From: an uncultured Methanomassiliicoccales archaeon
GTDB taxonomy: Archaea > Thermoplasmatota > Thermoplasmata > Methanomassiliicoccales > UBA472
Reading direction: 5' to 3'
Length of the DNA: 64,000 nucleotides
Assembly (NCBI GenBank): GCA_963695345.1
Contig: OY968769.1
Coordinates: forward strand, 1,920,001 to 1,984,000
Positions 21,829 to 28,157 of the stretch are shown one piece after another. How positions within the stretch are numbered: position 1 is the stretch's first letter; the number at the start of each line of letters is the position of its first letter. Both the position numbers and the translations under genes were made by a program. The notes under the pieces are model-generated. The model did not search any database. It was not told the origin of the DNA and was given only the letters and a program-made list of their open reading frames with translations.

Positions 21829-21891
21829 TAGATTCGGAAACTCGCTCCGGCATCAATATTAACCACCTATCATTAGGGACACGTGGCAATC

Positions 21892-22863
21892 ATGGCAGAA
21901 AAGAAGCAGTTCATCAGGGACCTTACCAAGGAGACCAAGGTCGACGACATGTTCTCGGTCAAGTTCAAGAAGCCAGTGCGCAAGAGCAAGAACGGTTTCA
22001 TGTTCGATGTCCGCGTCGGAGACAAGACCGGCGATATCGCGGTGAAGTACTTTGGCAACACCAACGAGATGGCGGTGCGCAAGGTATTCGATTCCATCAT
22101 ACCGGGAGGCGTTCTCCGCGTCAAAGGAAAGGCCCAGGAGTACAACGAGATCCTGGAGATCGCCATCAACCCGGACAACGGTGACATGGTGGTAGCCCTG
22201 GCCGAAGGCGAATATCGCCTCGAGGATTTCGTCCCGAGGACGGAGAAGGACATCAACCTGATGATGACCCAGCTGAATGGGTACATCAAGAAGGTCAAGG
22301 ACCCGAAGCTGCTGCAGCTGCTAAGCTATTTCTTCGCCGACGAGGCGTTCGTGGAGGAATTCAAGAAATGCCCCGCCGCAATAACCCATCACTGCAACTG
22401 GATCGGAGGGCTCCTGGAGCATACATTGGACGTCACCAAGCTCTGCGACACCATGGGAGACATGTATCCCCGGATGGACCGGGACCTGCTGCTGGCCGGC
22501 GCGATACTCCATGACATCGGCAAGGTGCATGAGTATGAGGTGACCACGAACATCGACTGCACCAACGAAGGAAGGCTGCGTGGCCATATCGTCATCGGTT
22601 CCGAGATGATCAGTTTCGCCATACGCACCATCCCGGAGTTCCCGGACAACCTGCGCATGAAGATCAGCCACATCATCCTCAGCAGCCACGGGGAACTGGA
22701 ATACGGTTCGCCGAAGGAGCCCTCGTTCCCGGAAGCGGTCGCAATAGCCCAGGCGGATACTCTGGACTCAAGGATACAGGAGATCGTCCGGGCCAAGCTC
22801 GATGCCAGGACCGAGGACGAGTGGGCTTGGAACAAGGAACTGGGCAGTATCTACCTGCGCTAA
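21892..22863 (+). CDS. OB-fold + HD-domain 3'-5' exoribonuclease (YhaM/Cbf1 family)
   Basis: GDKTGDI OB fold, PAA..HH..GGLLEHT, LHDIGK, GRLRGHI and SHG..EYGSP. Confidence 0.92.
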   Translation: MAEKKQFIRDLTKETKVDDMFSVKFKKPVRKSKNGFMFDVRVGDKTGDIAVKYFGNTNEMAVRKVFDSIIPGGVLRVKGKAQEYNEILEIAINPDNGDMVVALAEGEYRLEDFVPRTEKDINLMMTQLNGYIKKVKDPKLLQLLSYFFADEAFVEEFKKCPAAITHHCNWIGGLLEHTLDVTKLCDTMGDMYPRMDRDLLLAGAILHDIGKVHEYEVTTNIDCTNEGRLRGHIVIGSEMISFAIRTIPEFPDNLRMKISHIILSSHGELEYGSPKEPSFPEAVAIAQADTLDSRIQEIVRAKLDARTEDEWAWNKELGSIYLR

Positions 22864-23457: not shown

Positions 23458-23928
23458 TTACTCCTCGAACAGCTCCCTTCCCTTCGTGAATATCTCGAGA
23501 CTGTTCAACTCGCCTATCAGTTTTCCCTCACCATCAACGACAGGAAGATCGGTGAAGTGGTCCTCGACCATAATCTGCAACGCCTTGGTTAACTTGTCCG
23601 ATCGTTTCACCGTCGGGACCTTCTCGATTACTCCTTCGACGCCCTCCTTGAGCATGTCCCTCATGAGCCTCCACAGGGACCAGTTAGCGAATTCTCTAAC
23701 ACCGACACGGTAGCCCAGGAGTCGGAGCAGGGTCTCGGTGGTGACGGCCCCCAGGTACTTCCCTTCCTCGTTTAGGACATAGACCTTTCGGGATACCGGG
23801 TTTTTAAGGAACTCGTCGAAGACCTGGCGGATTTTCGCTCCGGAATCGATGGTTGTCGGGACTTTGACCACCAGATCGTAAACATCTTCGACCAGCAGGT
23901 CCGAGAAGCTCTTCTTCATCTCCACCAT
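23458..23928 (-). CDS. CBS domain pair protein
   Basis: Two CBS repeats (VYVLNEEGKYLGAVT and LPVVDGEGKLIGEL). Confidence 0.88.
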   Translation of the reverse strand: MVEMKKSFSDLLVEDVYDLVVKVPTTIDSGAKIRQVFDEFLKNPVSRKVYVLNEEGKYLGAVTTETLLRLLGYRVGVREFANWSLWRLMRDMLKEGVEGVIEKVPTVKRSDKLTKALQIMVEDHFTDLPVVDGEGKLIGELNSLEIFTKGRELFEE

Positions 23929-23994
23929 GATGGTTAGTAGCGAAACAGGAATACTTAACCAAATCGCTCTGGCCAGTCGATTTGAAAAAAAGAA

Positions 23995-24339
23995 ATGCGG
24001 AGTGTCCCCCACCCCAAACAGATTGGTTCATGGACGACATGACTGTCTGTTCTCCCCACACTGACCCGGGGCGGGGGTTTAGTGTCGTGCACCGGGGTTG
24101 TCCTCCAGTCATGACGCGATAGTCTCATCGCAAGTTCCTGCAGGGACCCAAATTACGGGCACTGTGCGCATTCAGATTACTGAGAGGTTCACAGGTCCCC
24201 TCTACTTTTACCGAATGCATGGAGGGAGAGGATTGACCTGAACTTAAATCCTCTCTAGCGGCTACGCCATCATTCGTGCCTATTCATGAACCGGTCAATC
24301 TGTAAGGCTGATCTGAAATCTGTTTGAGTCTCCCCGCAT
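23995..24339 (-). ncRNA. Candidate large structured non-coding RNA (~345 nt), family unrecognised
   Basis: Ends pair with each other, several nested 8-12 bp helices have G-U pairs only on the minus strand, a T-tract follows immediately and a TTATAC is upstream. Confidence 0.65.
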
Positions 24340-24599
24340 AGCCTTCCAAAAAGTATAAGCTCCAGACATTATTTTCTCAATCTGGCTCAGACACAACTTA
24401 TCATCATGAAATCTCCTTTAAAGAATATTTGGGCTTGTGATCAGCTAACTTCCTTGAGTGACCTATATCCGGTCACTTGTGTCCACCTTGCCCAAATATC
24501 GTGACCGACCGATAGTGTAATCAAAGAGGAGTGTCAGTAATGACCGAAGACAACAATCACGGATTCACTGGGCGTGGCCCGGCATGGGGGTGTGAACAA

Positions 24600-25049
24600 A
24601 TGAACGAGTTTGAAGAGAACATGGAAGTCACGTTCGATCCAAGCAAGACAAAGGGATTTGGCTGGAGGGTGTCGACCTCAATCGTTACAGCGGTGGGATG
24701 GCTTTCTTTCGTGGTCCTATGGCTGTTCTTCTACGCGGACGAATATTCCATCTACCAGAACATAGGGGCGGTCATCGTTTCGCTGATCGTCTTCATCGGC
24801 ATCAATGGCGCCGTATGGGGAACCTGGGCCATGCGCATGGCCCCGAAGGATGCCATGGGCCCGTGGCGTCTCAGGGCGGTGGCATCGTTCATCTCCGGCG
24901 CTGCCTGGGTGGCATTCCTGCTGATCTGGCTGCTGGTCTACGCGGACAGCTACAGCATCTACCAGAACATCGCCGTCCTGTTCGTCTCGGTGCTGGTGCT
25001 GGGCGGCATCAATGGCGTGCTATGGAACAGGCATTCCCGCCCCTGGTGA
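24600..25049 (+). CDS. Small 4-TM membrane protein with internal duplication
   Basis: Two repeats W..F..WL..YAD.YSIYQNI....VS......NG..W. Confidence 0.75.
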   Translation: MNEFEENMEVTFDPSKTKGFGWRVSTSIVTAVGWLSFVVLWLFFYADEYSIYQNIGAVIVSLIVFIGINGAVWGTWAMRMAPKDAMGPWRLRAVASFISGAAWVAFLLIWLLVYADSYSIYQNIAVLFVSVLVLGGINGVLWNRHSRPW

Positions 25050-25104
25050 AATTGCAAACACCTTCCATCATCTTTTTCTGCTCGGAACTGCCAATAACAT
25101 AATG

Positions 25105-25990
25105 ATGACCGTAACGGTCGGCTGCAGCGGCTGGTCCTATGACGATTGGGTCGGTCGGTTCTTTCCGTTCGAGATCCGGGATGACAACGCCAAGCGTTTC
25201 GAGCACTACGCTGAGTACTTCAATTCGGTGGAGATCAATTCTACCTTCTACCGTATGCCCGGTGACAAGCAGGTCAACTCATGGGTGGAGAAGGCCAAGG
25301 TACATCCCGGGTTCGAGTTCTCGGCGAAGATGCCCCGGAGCGTAACCCACGAGGCACTGGTGAACGGAGATTGCAAGGAGGCGGTGAAGCACGCCCTGTT
25401 CTTCGAGCGCACGCTCGCCTTGCCATTGAACGAGGTCGGTGGCCTCGGCGCCATCCTGCTGCAGATGTCCCCCTCCTTTCATGACACGGGCGATTCCTTC
25501 GAACTTCTCACCCGATTCCTGGGCGAGCTGTCAGTCGGGGAATTCCACTACGCGATCGAGTTCCGCCACCGGTCCTGGCTCAACGACAAGCATCATCTGC
25601 TGGGAGACACCGTCAGGCTGTTGCGGGACAATCGCATCGCCAACGTCATCGTGGACGGTCCGGGTTTCCCCTACACGAGCGACCTGACGGCCGATTCCGC
25701 CTATGTCCGTTTCCATGGCCGGAACTTCGACATCTGGTATCATGATGAGAAGGAGGACGATGAGCGCATTGACCGGTACGATTACCTTTACACCGAGGAA
25801 CAGCTTTCGCCGTGGGTGCCCAGGATCAAGGAGATGGAAGACAGCGTGCCGAAGGTCCGGGTGTTCTTCAACAACCACGGTCGGGCCAAGTCGGCCAAGA
25901 ACGCCTTCGAGCTGATGGACATGCTGGGGATTCCGCACCAGTCCGAAGGTGGTGCATGTCCAGGACCAGGCAAGGATAGACGAGTTCTGA
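25105..25990 (+). CDS. DUF72 (YecE) family protein (probable frameshift near 25943)
   Basis: VGCSGWSYDDW, VEINSTFY, AIEFRH.SW, YVRFHGRN, YDYLY and VFFNNH. Confidence 0.92.
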
Positions 25991-26045
25991 GCGCAAAACG
26001 AGGGCAAGCTATATCCATGGGACAATGCAATTGCGGGCGGAGAGG

Positions 26046-28157
26046 ATGAAGGAACTTTTCGAACCGGCAAGCATAGCTGTGGTTGGGGCGGCCAGGGAGG
26101 AGAACAAGGTCGGCCACATCGTTCTACGCAATATCATCAGCTCCGGCTTCACCGGAAAGCTGTATCCGGTCAACCCCAAGTCGACGGAGATTCTGGGGCT
26201 GAGATGCTATGCCAGCATCTCGCTTGGTACCGGACAAGGTAGACCTGGTCGTCGTCACCACGCCGGCCCGGATAGTACCAGGAATAATCGAAGAGGCCGG
26301 CCGTAAGGGCACCAAGGCGGCCATCATCATTTCCGCCGGTTTCAAGGAGACCGGCAAGGACGGGGCTGAGCTGGAACGCAAGGTCGGCGAGATCGCCCGT
26401 TCCTACGGGATGAGGATACTGGGCCCCAACTGCCTGGGCATGATCAACACCCACAGCAAGATCAACGCCACCTTCACCAACCAATACCCGCAGGCCGGCA
26501 TCGATCGCCATCACCTCCCAGTCAGGCGCCATCTGCTCGGTCATGCTGGACTGGGCCCGGCGTACCAGCGTCGGATTCTCCAAGTTCGTCAGCGTCGGGA
26601 ACAAGCTGGACATCGACGAGGCGGACCTGCTCGAGTACTCTCGCGATGACGATCCGTTGACCAAGGTCATCGGGATGTACATCGAGGGGACCAACCGCGG
26701 CATCGAGTTCATGCGTCAGGCCAGGCTGACAACGAGGGAGCAAGCCGATCATCGCCCTCAAGGCCGGAAGGACCTCGTCCGGGGCCAAGGCAGCATCTTC
26801 CCACACCGGCGCGCTATCCGGCAGCGACAAGGTTTACGACGCGGCCCTGGCCCAGTCCGGCATCATCCGGGTCAAGACGATCGAGGAGCTGTTCGACCAT
26901 CTCACCCTTTTCTCCAGCATGCCGTTGCCCGAGGGCGACCGCATCGCCATCGTCACCAACGCCGGCGGTCTCGGAGTCATGGCGGCGGACGCATGCTCCG
27001 ATTACGGTCTGACCTTGGCATCGTTCAAGCCGGAGACCATCGAGCTGCTCAAGACCAAGCTGCCGGAGTCGGCCAACTTCTACAACCCGGTGGACGTGAT
27101 CGGTGACGCCGATGCCGACCGTTACTCCTTCGCGATCAACGCCATAATGAAGGATGACAGCGTCTCATGCATCCTGGCATTGATGGCGCCCGACCGACAT
27201 CGTCGACACGGCGGCGGTGGCCACGGCCTTGGCCAAGTTCGCCGGCAATTCGCACCAAACCGTTCGTCACCGCATTCGTCGGAGGGGCTGGCCTGGAGAA
27301 GGCGATCGGCATTCTCAGGACATCGGGCGTTCCCAACTATGATTCGCCCGACCGGGCGGTGCAATCGCTCAGCGCGATGGTATCGTACAAGCGGTTCAAG
27401 GACTCCAAGGAGGACGAGGGACCGGTCTCCTAGCCAGGGGGACAAGGTACGGACGAAGGCGGTGTCTGGACAAGGTCCGTTCCGAGAACCGGCTGATGCT
27501 GTCGGAGACCGAGGGGAAGGAAATCCTGCGCGCCTACGGAATCGACGTGCCGCTGGAAGGGATGGCCAAGGACGCCGACGAGGCGGTCAGGGAGGCACAG
27601 AGGATCGGATATCCGCTGGTCATGAAGATCGAGTCGCCGGACATCGCGCACAAGACCGATGTCGGCGGTGTCGTGGTCGACATCAGGAGCGATGACGAGG
27701 TCAGGACGCAGTTCCAGCTCATCATGGCCCGGGTCTCCTCCAGGATGCCCCAGGCGAAGATCGACGGTGTTTCCCTGGAACGGATGGTCAAGGGAAGGGA
27801 GGTCATCGTGGGCATGGTCCGGGACAACCAGTTCGGACCGGTGGTGACGTTCGGGCTGGGGGGCATATTCGTCGAGATAATGCGGGACGTGACCCAGAGG
27901 ATAGCTCCTTTAACCCGGCAGCGACGTTAATTACCATGATACAATCGATCAAGGCGTATCCGATACTCACGGGGCCAGAGGGCAGGCGTCCGGCGGATAT
28001 CGCGGCGCTCCAGGAGGTCATCGGCAGGCTGTCGCAGCTGGCCATCGATTTCCCCGAGCTGGCGGAGTTCGAGATAAACCCGGTCATCGTCGGCGACGAG
28101 GGTCAGGGGGCGAGCGCGGTGGACGCGCTCGCGACGATCAGGAGGGAAACAGCATGA
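26046..28157 (+). CDS. acdA: Acetate--CoA ligase (ADP-forming), alpha-beta fusion (multiple frameshifts)
   Basis: [63 protein letters not shown] and EINP. Confidence 0.9.

Follow-up and report, generated by a model that had tools for sequence, protein, structure and literature searches.

Which gene, if any, occupies the intergenic region around positions 23995–24339 of the window, the 64,000-nucleotide (nt) stretch of contig OY968769.1 from an uncultured Methanomassiliicoccales archaeon that was analysed here? A sequence-only reading of this region had proposed an independently transcribed minus-strand RNA of ~345 nt, of unknown class and possibly a ribozyme. The complementary segments that it listed are present, its strand is right, and its unannotated, independent, structured noncoding RNA stands; its extent and its unknown class do not, and covariation supports only some of its helices. 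We consider it very probable that the element is a minus-strand gene for a three-hairpin archaeal box H/ACA guide RNA, unannotated and widely conserved, with a conserved RNA of ~220 nt at 24000–24219. In place of an unknown class or a ribozyme, the anatomy comprises three kink-turn (K-turn) or kink-loop (K-loop) hairpins, their pockets, a 3′ ACA and complementarity to 23S ribosomal RNA (rRNA), as in an archaeal box H/ACA guide. The parts of the RNA described below all lie on the minus strand.

The extent of the conserved RNA was taken from a MAFFT alignment of 30 loci and from 27 distinct homologous sequences. The conserved stretch starts at UGCAUUC (24219) and stops just past GGGGGACAC (24003), and upstream of ~24270 there is no alignable sequence, even among same-genus loci. 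BLAST matches within the genus begin only at query positions 110–130, which correspond to window positions 24271–24251 and below, and those in other families are limited to ~24169–24001. We infer the 5′ end from promoter spacing and the start of hairpin 1, and place the 3′ end presumptively a few nt past the last ACA. The 5′ third of the proposed 345-nt RNA, 24220–24339, is unconserved even in seven same-genus genomes. One arm of each of three proposed helices falls in this unalignable part: the terminal helix (23995–24000/24334–24339), the 12-base-pair (bp) helix (24013–24024/24317–24328) and ggttcatg/catgaacc (24025–24032/24285–24292). These helices, and the duplicated ACAGATT whose two proposed conformers rest on the same non-conserved extension, are best read as chance or genus-specific complementarity. 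Since the conserved stems are rich in G-U and U-G pairs, which would be A-C on the plus strand, the RNA was assigned to the minus strand; in this orientation, pair 11/65 is UG in 8 sequences, pair 12/64 is GU in 7 and pair 164/226 is GU in 10.

RNAalifold folded the 27 sequences into three consecutive hairpins, in which 96.9% of 1395 cells were standard pairs. When the 3′ partners were slid by 1–3 columns as a control, pairing fell to 35–48%. Double-sided changes were present in 24 of 52 pairs, compared with 12.3 ± 1.6 in shuffles, none of which (0/500) reached 24; double-change cells numbered 130, compared with 33.6 in the shuffles. The structure was taken from the same alignment on which it was scored, a bias in its favour; despite this bias, the slid controls and the many pair types (CG 9, UA 9 and UG 8 at pair 11/65) argue for the fold and are hard to explain otherwise. 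The single-sequence minimum free energy (MFE) structure of 24000–24220 is the same three-hairpin fold, near the centroid, with z = −3.1. Several segments noted earlier find their place in this fold and covary across the 27 homologs: 24168–24175/24211–24218 is the lower stem of hairpin 1, agagg/cctct its upper stem, and gcgat/atcgc the apical stem of hairpin 2. Others do not. The pairing catgactg/cagtcatg (24038–24045/24106–24113) would join the K-turn strand of hairpin 2 to the apical loop of hairpin 3, which is genus-specific and not the same in other genera; the cccc/gggg and acact/agtgt subdomain is replaced by a covarying long-range stem, CCCCCGNCC/GGNCGGGGG (helix 7); and the hairpin 24226–24234/24247–24255 brackets a TATA-like box upstream of the conserved RNA.

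All three hairpins share one plan: a K-turn or K-loop, a pocket formed by an internal loop and, just 3′ of the lower stem, an ACA or ANA triplet. Hairpin 1 (24167–24219) consists of a lower stem UGCAUUC/GAAUGCG, a pocket GGUAAAAGU/CAGUAAUCU, an upper stem AGAGG/CCUCU of 5 bp plus a G-A, and a K-loop GGA-CCUGU-GAA. Double-sided changes occur in 6/8 pairs of helix 1 and in all four pairs of helix 2, and the loop GA and UGA, the pattern of a K-loop, are invariant in the 27 sequences. The first ACA triplet, a hinge resembling an H box, lies at 24163–24165, 1 nt past the lower stem; in the 27-sequence alignment A65, A67 and G68 never vary, and conservation of C66 is 90% or more.

Hairpins 2 and 3, the 3′ two-thirds of the RNA, are represented by a covariance model, R1 (164 positions, 35 pairs), to which 38 class-wide sequences were aligned. 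Hairpin 2 (24087–24162) has a lower stem of 7–8 bp (GUGC-CCG/CGG-U-GCAC), an upper stem CCUGCAG/CUGGAGG of 7 bp including a conserved G-G, and an apical stem GCGAU/AUCGC. Its pocket is formed by a 5′ strand UAAUUUGGGUC (24145–24155) and a 3′ strand ACAACCC (24095–24101), and its K-turn by GA (24136–24137) and GUCAUGA (24109–24115), the strands reading CAG-GA-AC(U)GCGAU and AUCGCGU-CAU-GA-CUGG. A K-turn comprises a C stem, a 3-nt bulge and tandem G-A pairs, a consensus that the putative hairpin 2 loop fits. Helices 3, 5 and 6 covary, and the K-turn G and UG are invariant or near-invariant in the 38 sequences. ACA triplet 2 lies at 24083–24085, 1 nt past the lower stem, and is invariant in the 38-sequence alignment; the box after hairpin 2 could be located in 45 of 47 sequences and was always ANA (ACA in 43, AGA in one, AAA in one).

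Hairpin 3 (24006–24077) has a 10-bp lower stem (CCCCCGCCCC/GGGGUGGGGG), an upper stem and a variable apical stem. The 5′ strand of its pocket is GGGUCAG (24061–24067), the 3′ strand lies within AAUCUGUUU (24016–24024), and the K-turn is GGGGAGA/CCAUGAACC (24025–24033), with strands GGG-GA-GA and UC-CAU-GA-ACC. Helices 7 and 9 covary; GGGUCAG, C.GUUA, GAG and UGA are invariant or nearly so; and the upper part comprises ~7 layers, several of them non-Watson-Crick. ACA box 3 (24003–24005) stands directly past the lower stem, near the 3′ end, and is ACA in 46 of 47 sequences and AAA in one. G-A and (A/G)UGA, invariant or nearly invariant, flank the upper stems of both hairpins 2 and 3. From the G of GUUA to the ACA, the distance in hairpin 3 is 14 nt in 39/47 sequences, 15 nt in 7/47 and 12 nt in 1/47. 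According to the consulted parts of two studies, Pyrococcus H/ACA ribonucleoproteins (RNPs) need a target–ACA spacing of 14–15 nt (PMC2377435) and the spacing in H. volcanii is 15 ± 1 (PMC7075261); the spacing of hairpin 3 is therefore canonical, being 14–15 nt in 46/47 sequences.

Across the 38 class-wide sequences, the invariant or near-invariant nucleotides are GGGUCCC and ACAAC on the loop strands of hairpin 2, GGGUCAG and C.GUUA on those of hairpin 3, the G-A and UGA of the K-turns and both ACA triplets, and the stems covary freely. Nine more distant sequences keep GGUCA, GUUA, (A/C)CAAC and an ANA after each hairpin. Judged by sequence, this combination, in which the stems vary but the strands of the internal loops, the K-turn and the ACA do not, is what marks a box H/ACA guide RNA.

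The gene is found well beyond the genus. BLAST matched it in 37 of 41 relatives' genomes, this genome included, with one copy here, one in 35 of the 36 other matching genomes and two in genome G021. The second match in G021 is partial and lies on another contig. In two drafts the RNA gene stands at the very start of a contig (G011:C34, locus L020; G021:C67, locus L031); an assembly break or a local duplication may account for these placements and for the second G021 match. R1 matched 124 of 151 genomes sampled from the class (57 of 67 genera; one unpublished genome, G135, is part of this tally) and 69 of 151 sampled from the phylum. These matches are nearly all single and full-length; this genome has one, genome G056 has a second, partial one, and some weak matches are short. 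By BLAST and by R1 the gene is thus single-copy per genome, with no signature of a dispersed repeat or miniature inverted-repeat transposable element. An R1 match was absent from families f24 (0/12 genomes) and f25 (0/2), and seven listed genomes of these two families without a match are 98–99% complete; either the RNA is too diverged there for R1 or it was lost. In a crude scan, 30 of 46 loci had a K-loop hairpin ending in ANA directly upstream of hairpin 2; therefore, the three-hairpin layout is common in the group.

Contigs from RNA libraries also cover the element. Among the listed runs, 20 of 24 (15 studies) contain a share of 0.21–0.29 of the sampled words of 23900–24450. Contigs were examined in four metatranscriptome runs from four studies, and the word shares of the other 16 runs were not used as evidence. 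Run X4 has a 199-nt contig corresponding to 24004–24201; run X10 a contig at 24007–24151 with a depth of 580 and no differences, plus short pieces of 24122–24201; run X2 contig cover of 23990–24200; and run X13 a contig at 24001–24211 and a second at 24051–24157. This cover stops short of 23938–23975 and 24223–24450, which is not evidence that transcripts are absent there. These contigs fit a small RNA that is discrete and abundant and has roughly the predicted extent. Independent transcription, as proposed before, is supported by this cover (24001 to 24201 or 24211) together with flanking genes that are shared only within the genus. The contigs of X4, X10 and X2 end at 24200/24201, inside the upper stem of hairpin 1, and adapter letters directly follow 24200 in X2 and stand at 24007 in X10; the stops at 24200/24201 may come from RNA processing, from reverse transcriptase halting at the K-loop hairpin or from a break in the assembly, and are a weak hint at most.

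Searches against Rfam place the element outside the common RNA families. At gathering thresholds there were no matches in the whole 64-kb window, and at E ≤ 10 the region 23850–24500 gave three weak C/D-snoRNA-like matches (E 0.059–9.7), all outside the RNA. RNase P RNA and signal recognition particle (SRP) RNA are encoded elsewhere in the genome (208.6 bits and 158.6 bits, respectively), so the element is neither; with no Rfam match to a tRNA or tmRNA, these classes too had been rightly set aside in the sequence-only reading.

The proteins of an H/ACA RNP are encoded in this genome: Cbf5 (TruB_N, 85.8 bits; NCBIfam equivalog NF003280, 431 bits), Nop10 (84.2 bits), Gar1 (33.2 bits) and, at two loci, genes of the L7Ae family. 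By analogy with established archaeal H/ACA RNPs, L7Ae would bind each hairpin at its K-turn or K-loop, and Cbf5-Nop10-Gar1 would bind the lower stem and ACA triplet of each. Both pocket strands would then base-pair with rRNA around an unpaired uridine, which Cbf5 would isomerise to pseudouridine.

Candidate targets were sought by scanning the 23S and 16S rRNA of this genome (4400 nt) for bipartite complementarity that leaves a U-N unpaired; positions in the large-subunit (LSU) and small-subunit (SSU) rRNA are those of this genome. Hairpin 3 probably guides modification of a uridine in the loop of helix 69, LSU U1962, which by our own alignment to the E. coli sequence we take to be U1915. At this site the class-consensus guide would form two duplexes, GUUA/UAAC and GGGUCA/UGACCC, on either side of an unpaired U-A. 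The helix 69 sequence, GGGGGUAACUAUGACCCUC, is the same in 10/10 genomes examined. The hairpin 3 nucleotides that pair with it are the phylum-wide invariant ones, and the unpaired nucleotide is the variable middle base of C(U/A/C)G. It is mainly this conservation of guide and target that suggests the assignment. The guide of family f7, AAGUCA, meets an unchanged target, so that guide–target co-variation is uninformative here.

Three other pairings of this hairpin were rejected. The top canonical match, LSU U2069 (UAAUAG-UA-CUGGC), was discarded because the rRNA stretch varies among genomes (it differs in all four others compared, G058, G087, G050 and G178) while the guide is invariant. Pairing with a peptidyl transferase centre (PTC) sequence, UAACAGGCUGAU, fails in this genome, whose 23S rRNA has GAUAACUGAGUCGUC there. 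A pairing shared by hairpins 1 and 3, AAUCUG with LSU CAGGUU in the helix 93 region, uses an AAU that is not conserved outside the order.

With the covarying upper stem setting the limits of its pocket, hairpin 2 has its two best canonical UN sites in 23S and 16S rRNA at the A-loop (LSU 2596) and then at LSU 2627, in the PTC. By our own alignment to E. coli 23S rRNA, LSU 2596 would be U2555, LSU 2595 U2554 and LSU 2627 U2586. The A-loop match, GGGUUGU-UC-GCCC, has 7+4 pairs (ACAACCC with GGGUUGU, GGGU with GCCC), or 9+5 with the full guide of this genome. Its score was reached by 3 of 300 shuffles, and by none of 300 when the geometry was fixed. The match at LSU 2627, GGGUU-UA-GACC, has 5+4 pairs. 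The A-loop was taken as the conserved target since it reads GGGGUUGUUCGCCC identically in 9/9 genomes examined, whereas the 2627 site varies: the base is C in G058 and G087 (loci L068 and L069), and in four f7 genomes the 3′ arm is AAAC and the guide change from UC to AA is not compensatory. U2627 was thus rejected as a general target of hairpin 2, but may possibly be an additional site in this genome only. The four f7 genomes have UUUAAAAC in place of UUUAGACC just downstream of the equivalent of E. coli U2586, a base that is pseudouridylated in haloarchaea. On balance, we favour a uridine of the A-loop (helix 92), LSU U2595 or U2596, as the predicted target of hairpin 2.

Two candidates were considered for hairpin 1. 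A pairing with SSU U406 (GCUG-UU-CUUUUGUC; 13/300 shuffles) was rejected, as the target in G014 is CCCCUGUC with the same 5′ guide and no co-variation, and a pairing with LSU U2650 is weak (3+6 bp). Elsewhere in the class and phylum (loci L040–L067 and L079–L088), the pocket of a 5′ hairpin that stands ~75 nt upstream of the R1 match is conserved; its strands, UUCGAAGA/GGCAAGG, are complementary to 23S CUUGC-UA-CUUCG (LSU U2537 of this genome). In the scan of that pocket, 9/200 shuffles reached the top score, which belongs to another site, in 16S rRNA. The 5′-hairpin pocket of the window's own family is different and variable.

Several observations weigh against a guide RNA of this kind. No Rfam H/ACA family matches 23850–24500 at E ≤ 10, the K-turn assignments are matches of a sequence pattern to the K-turn consensus, and the contigs are assemblies of RNA libraries that may contain DNA, so they neither prove transcription nor define ends. 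For hairpin 3, complementarity by itself is weak and not significant: its best score, 10 with flexible geometry, was reached by 17/200 shuffles, and LSU 2069 scores the same. The guide of this genus is GUUU, which forms 3 pairs on the 3′ arm at helix 69; with it, helix 69 scores 9 and is not the top match, and 166/200 shuffles reach this guide's top score of 9.5. In family f10 the 3′ guide of hairpin 2 is ACAACGC, leaving 5 contiguous pairs. Scans of 23S and 16S rRNA, with SSU 406 and LSU 2650 as the candidates, gave no hairpin 1 target that holds across genomes, and this hairpin has 17 nt between upper stem and ACA and a poorly conserved pocket. The geometry departs from that of Pyrococcus, where, in the consulted part of the study, upper stems have 5–6 bp and 7-bp cases were inactive in vitro (PMC2377435), compared with 7 pairs in hairpin 2 and ~7 layers in hairpin 3. 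In most sequences the ACA of hairpin 2 lies 16 nt from the first possible 3′-guide pair, and the full 7-bp 3′ pairing sets the target 16–17 nt from the ACA; a 15-nt spacing would require a UNN configuration, with modification then falling on U2554. UNN configurations were functional in the Pyrococcus study, as far as consulted (PMC2377435).

These departures lend themselves to another explanation, in which the RNA is an RNP scaffold of H/ACA-like or K-turn type: it would bind L7Ae and possibly Cbf5 as well, and might serve as a non-guiding chaperone of rRNA folding or processing on helix 69 and the A-loop. Among eukaryotic H/ACA RNAs, snR30/U17 and snR10 act in processing. Such a scaffold is compatible with upper stems and an ACA spacing of hairpin 2 that lie outside the optimum given in the consulted part of the Pyrococcus study (PMC2377435), with the lack of a consistent hairpin 1 target, and with the very high conservation of both pocket strands, which suits any base-pairing role. 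However, the spacing of hairpin 3 is canonical, the paired sites leave an unpaired U-N as modification guides do, and H/ACA guidance of pseudouridylation at the helix 69 site is proven in H. volcanii and, according to the sections consulted, also in yeast and human (PMC7075261). We therefore regard a non-guiding scaffold as improbable and retain the guide RNA.

The transcription signals and flanking genes bear on two further explanations. A TATA-like box, TTTAAGTT (24241–24248, minus strand), is centred ~26 nt before hairpin 1 begins. In most other loci and families an A/T-rich box (TTTAATAC, TTAAATAC and similar) stands at the same alignment columns or fixed upstream distance, which suggests a promoter role for TTTAAGTT. 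By contrast, TTATAC (24353–24358), noted earlier, is not conserved, and it is TTTAAGTT that occupies the position of the box in the other families. A 9-bp inverted repeat, GAGAGGATT/AATCCTCTC (24226–24255), flanks the TATA-like box and is partly kept within the genus only; it is possibly a regulator site. Downstream, the T-tract noted before is present at 23985–23995 (TTTCTTTTTTT, minus strand), where a terminator-like pattern is also listed, and likely acts as an archaeal transcription stop.

The RNA is flanked by a downstream gene for a CBS-domain protein (23458–23928, minus strand) and by a gene for a repeat-like, hydrophobic protein of 172 amino acids without a Pfam match (24531–25049, plus strand). 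Directly upstream of the CBS gene, on the same strand and ending at a T-tract, the RNA could act in cis on this gene, controlling it through the T-tract terminator as a 5′ leader or in the manner of a riboswitch. Yet both flanking genes adjoin the RNA only in same-genus loci (among searched loci drawn from the 58 of L004–L032 and L039–L067; for the CBS gene by DNA-level similarity), whereas conservation of the RNA extends through the class and phylum, and the ACA and K-turn anatomy has no role in a leader; this makes such control very unlikely. The 345-nt RNA of unknown class with a terminal helix and two conformers is just as hard to credit: its complementary segments exist in this genome and the MFE of 23995–24339 is somewhat below that of shuffles (z = −2.29), but the plus strand yields the same z (−2.30), its 5′ 120 nt are unconserved in the seven same-genus genomes, and the position-conserved TATA-like box falls inside it.

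Further neighbours are genes for an HD-domain protein with a weak OB-fold match (21883–22863, plus strand) and for a DUF72 protein (25012–26049, plus strand). Just upstream of the H/ACA gene, the minus-strand stretch 24344–24411 has a weak Rfam match to snoR35 (20.9 bits versus a gathering score of 40, E 0.059) and contains AUGAUGA and CUGA motifs. This stretch cannot be aligned with same-genus genomes, and the C/D-box-like match is probably due to chance.

Compared by description and not by sequence, the nearest experimentally characterised analogue of the guide RNA appears to be sR-h45 of H. volcanii, a double-hairpin H/ACA RNA of ~200 nt. In the consulted parts of its description, the 3′ hairpin guides the helix 69 uridines Hv 1940/1942 in the target UAUGACCC, and the 5′ hairpin acts on the PTC, where its target is the third U of UUU (Hv 2605) and two pocket A's pair with two U's (PMC7075261). 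As far as that description goes, both RNAs consist of several hairpins, each followed by an ANA, are ~200 nt long, contain K-turn (sheared G-A) elements and share the same hairpin order of functions; the 3′-hairpin site is the one predicted for hairpin 3, and hairpin 2 of this genome can form the PTC pairing of the 5′ hairpin (AACCC with GGGUU). In contrast to sR-h45, hairpin 3 would also pair with U1917 and G1918 in a typical UN arrangement, which predicts modification of U1915 alone rather than a UNUN double site. For hairpin 2, the target that is conserved seems to be the A-loop rather than U2586, which is C in G058 and G087 and whose 5′-guide match is lost in family f7. The RNA described here also has no 56-nt linker and has an extra 5′ hairpin.

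Three-motif H/ACA RNAs are known as Pab40 and Pf7 in Pyrococcus and Afu4 in Archaeoglobus; motif 3 targets 23S U2016 in domain IV, a position called highly conserved in eukaryotes in the part of the study consulted (PMC2377435). We infer that U2016 is the helix 69 site. Compared by partial description only, these RNAs likewise contain three H/ACA motifs apiece, and every motif includes an ANA and either a K-turn or a K-loop. The site of the 5′-hairpin pocket of other lineages, LSU CUUGC-UA-CUUCG, may by our own offset estimate be U2588, the motif 1 target of Pab40. Unlike here, no A-loop target is among the sites listed in the consulted part of the Pyrococcus study (PMC2377435), and the spacing and upper-stem lengths of hairpins 1 and 2 exceed the Pyrococcus optimum given there.

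Eukaryotic H/ACA snoRNAs act on the same rRNA sites by the same guide mechanism. In yeast, the A-loop pseudouridine at position 2923 is guided by snR10, and we know of no archaeal guide RNA described for the A-loop. The helix 69 guides named in the consulted part of PMC7075261 are snR191 and U19. Unlike the RNA described here, the eukaryotic snoRNAs have a hairpin-hinge-hairpin-tail form without K-turns and use two hairpins for two helix 69 sites, and no sequence relationship is expected. In the literature searched, no description was found of H/ACA RNAs from Methanomassiliicoccales or Thermoplasmata, though one may exist elsewhere; PMC4652768 names neither Thermoplasma nor Methanomassiliicoccus.

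A tentative and rather doubtful proposal is that the RNA is the ancestral core multi-hairpin H/ACA guide of the phylum, orthologous to sR-h45 and to Pab40/Afu4. The helix 69 guide would have been kept as the 3′ hairpin and the middle hairpin fixed on the A-loop in this lineage, and the 5′ hairpin of Methanomassiliicoccaceae, freed from an rRNA target, would now be an evolving orphan guide that targets something other than rRNA or plays no part in catalysis.

In conclusion, the analysis provides a useful annotation within the known box H/ACA kind, and a new class of RNA is not supported; the false lead of a 345-nt RNA of unknown class is removed. A conserved intergenic RNA that RNA-family libraries miss across the class and much of the phylum receives a name and a testable function, and a covariance-model seed is available for annotating such genes. 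Two departures, the variability of the 5′ hairpin and spacings longer than the canonical ones, are real if small and could inform the rules of guide–target prediction in archaea. For the methanogenic Methanomassiliicoccales and their relatives, the prediction is that uridines of helix 69 and of the A-loop in 23S rRNA would be pseudouridylated by a Cbf5 RNP.

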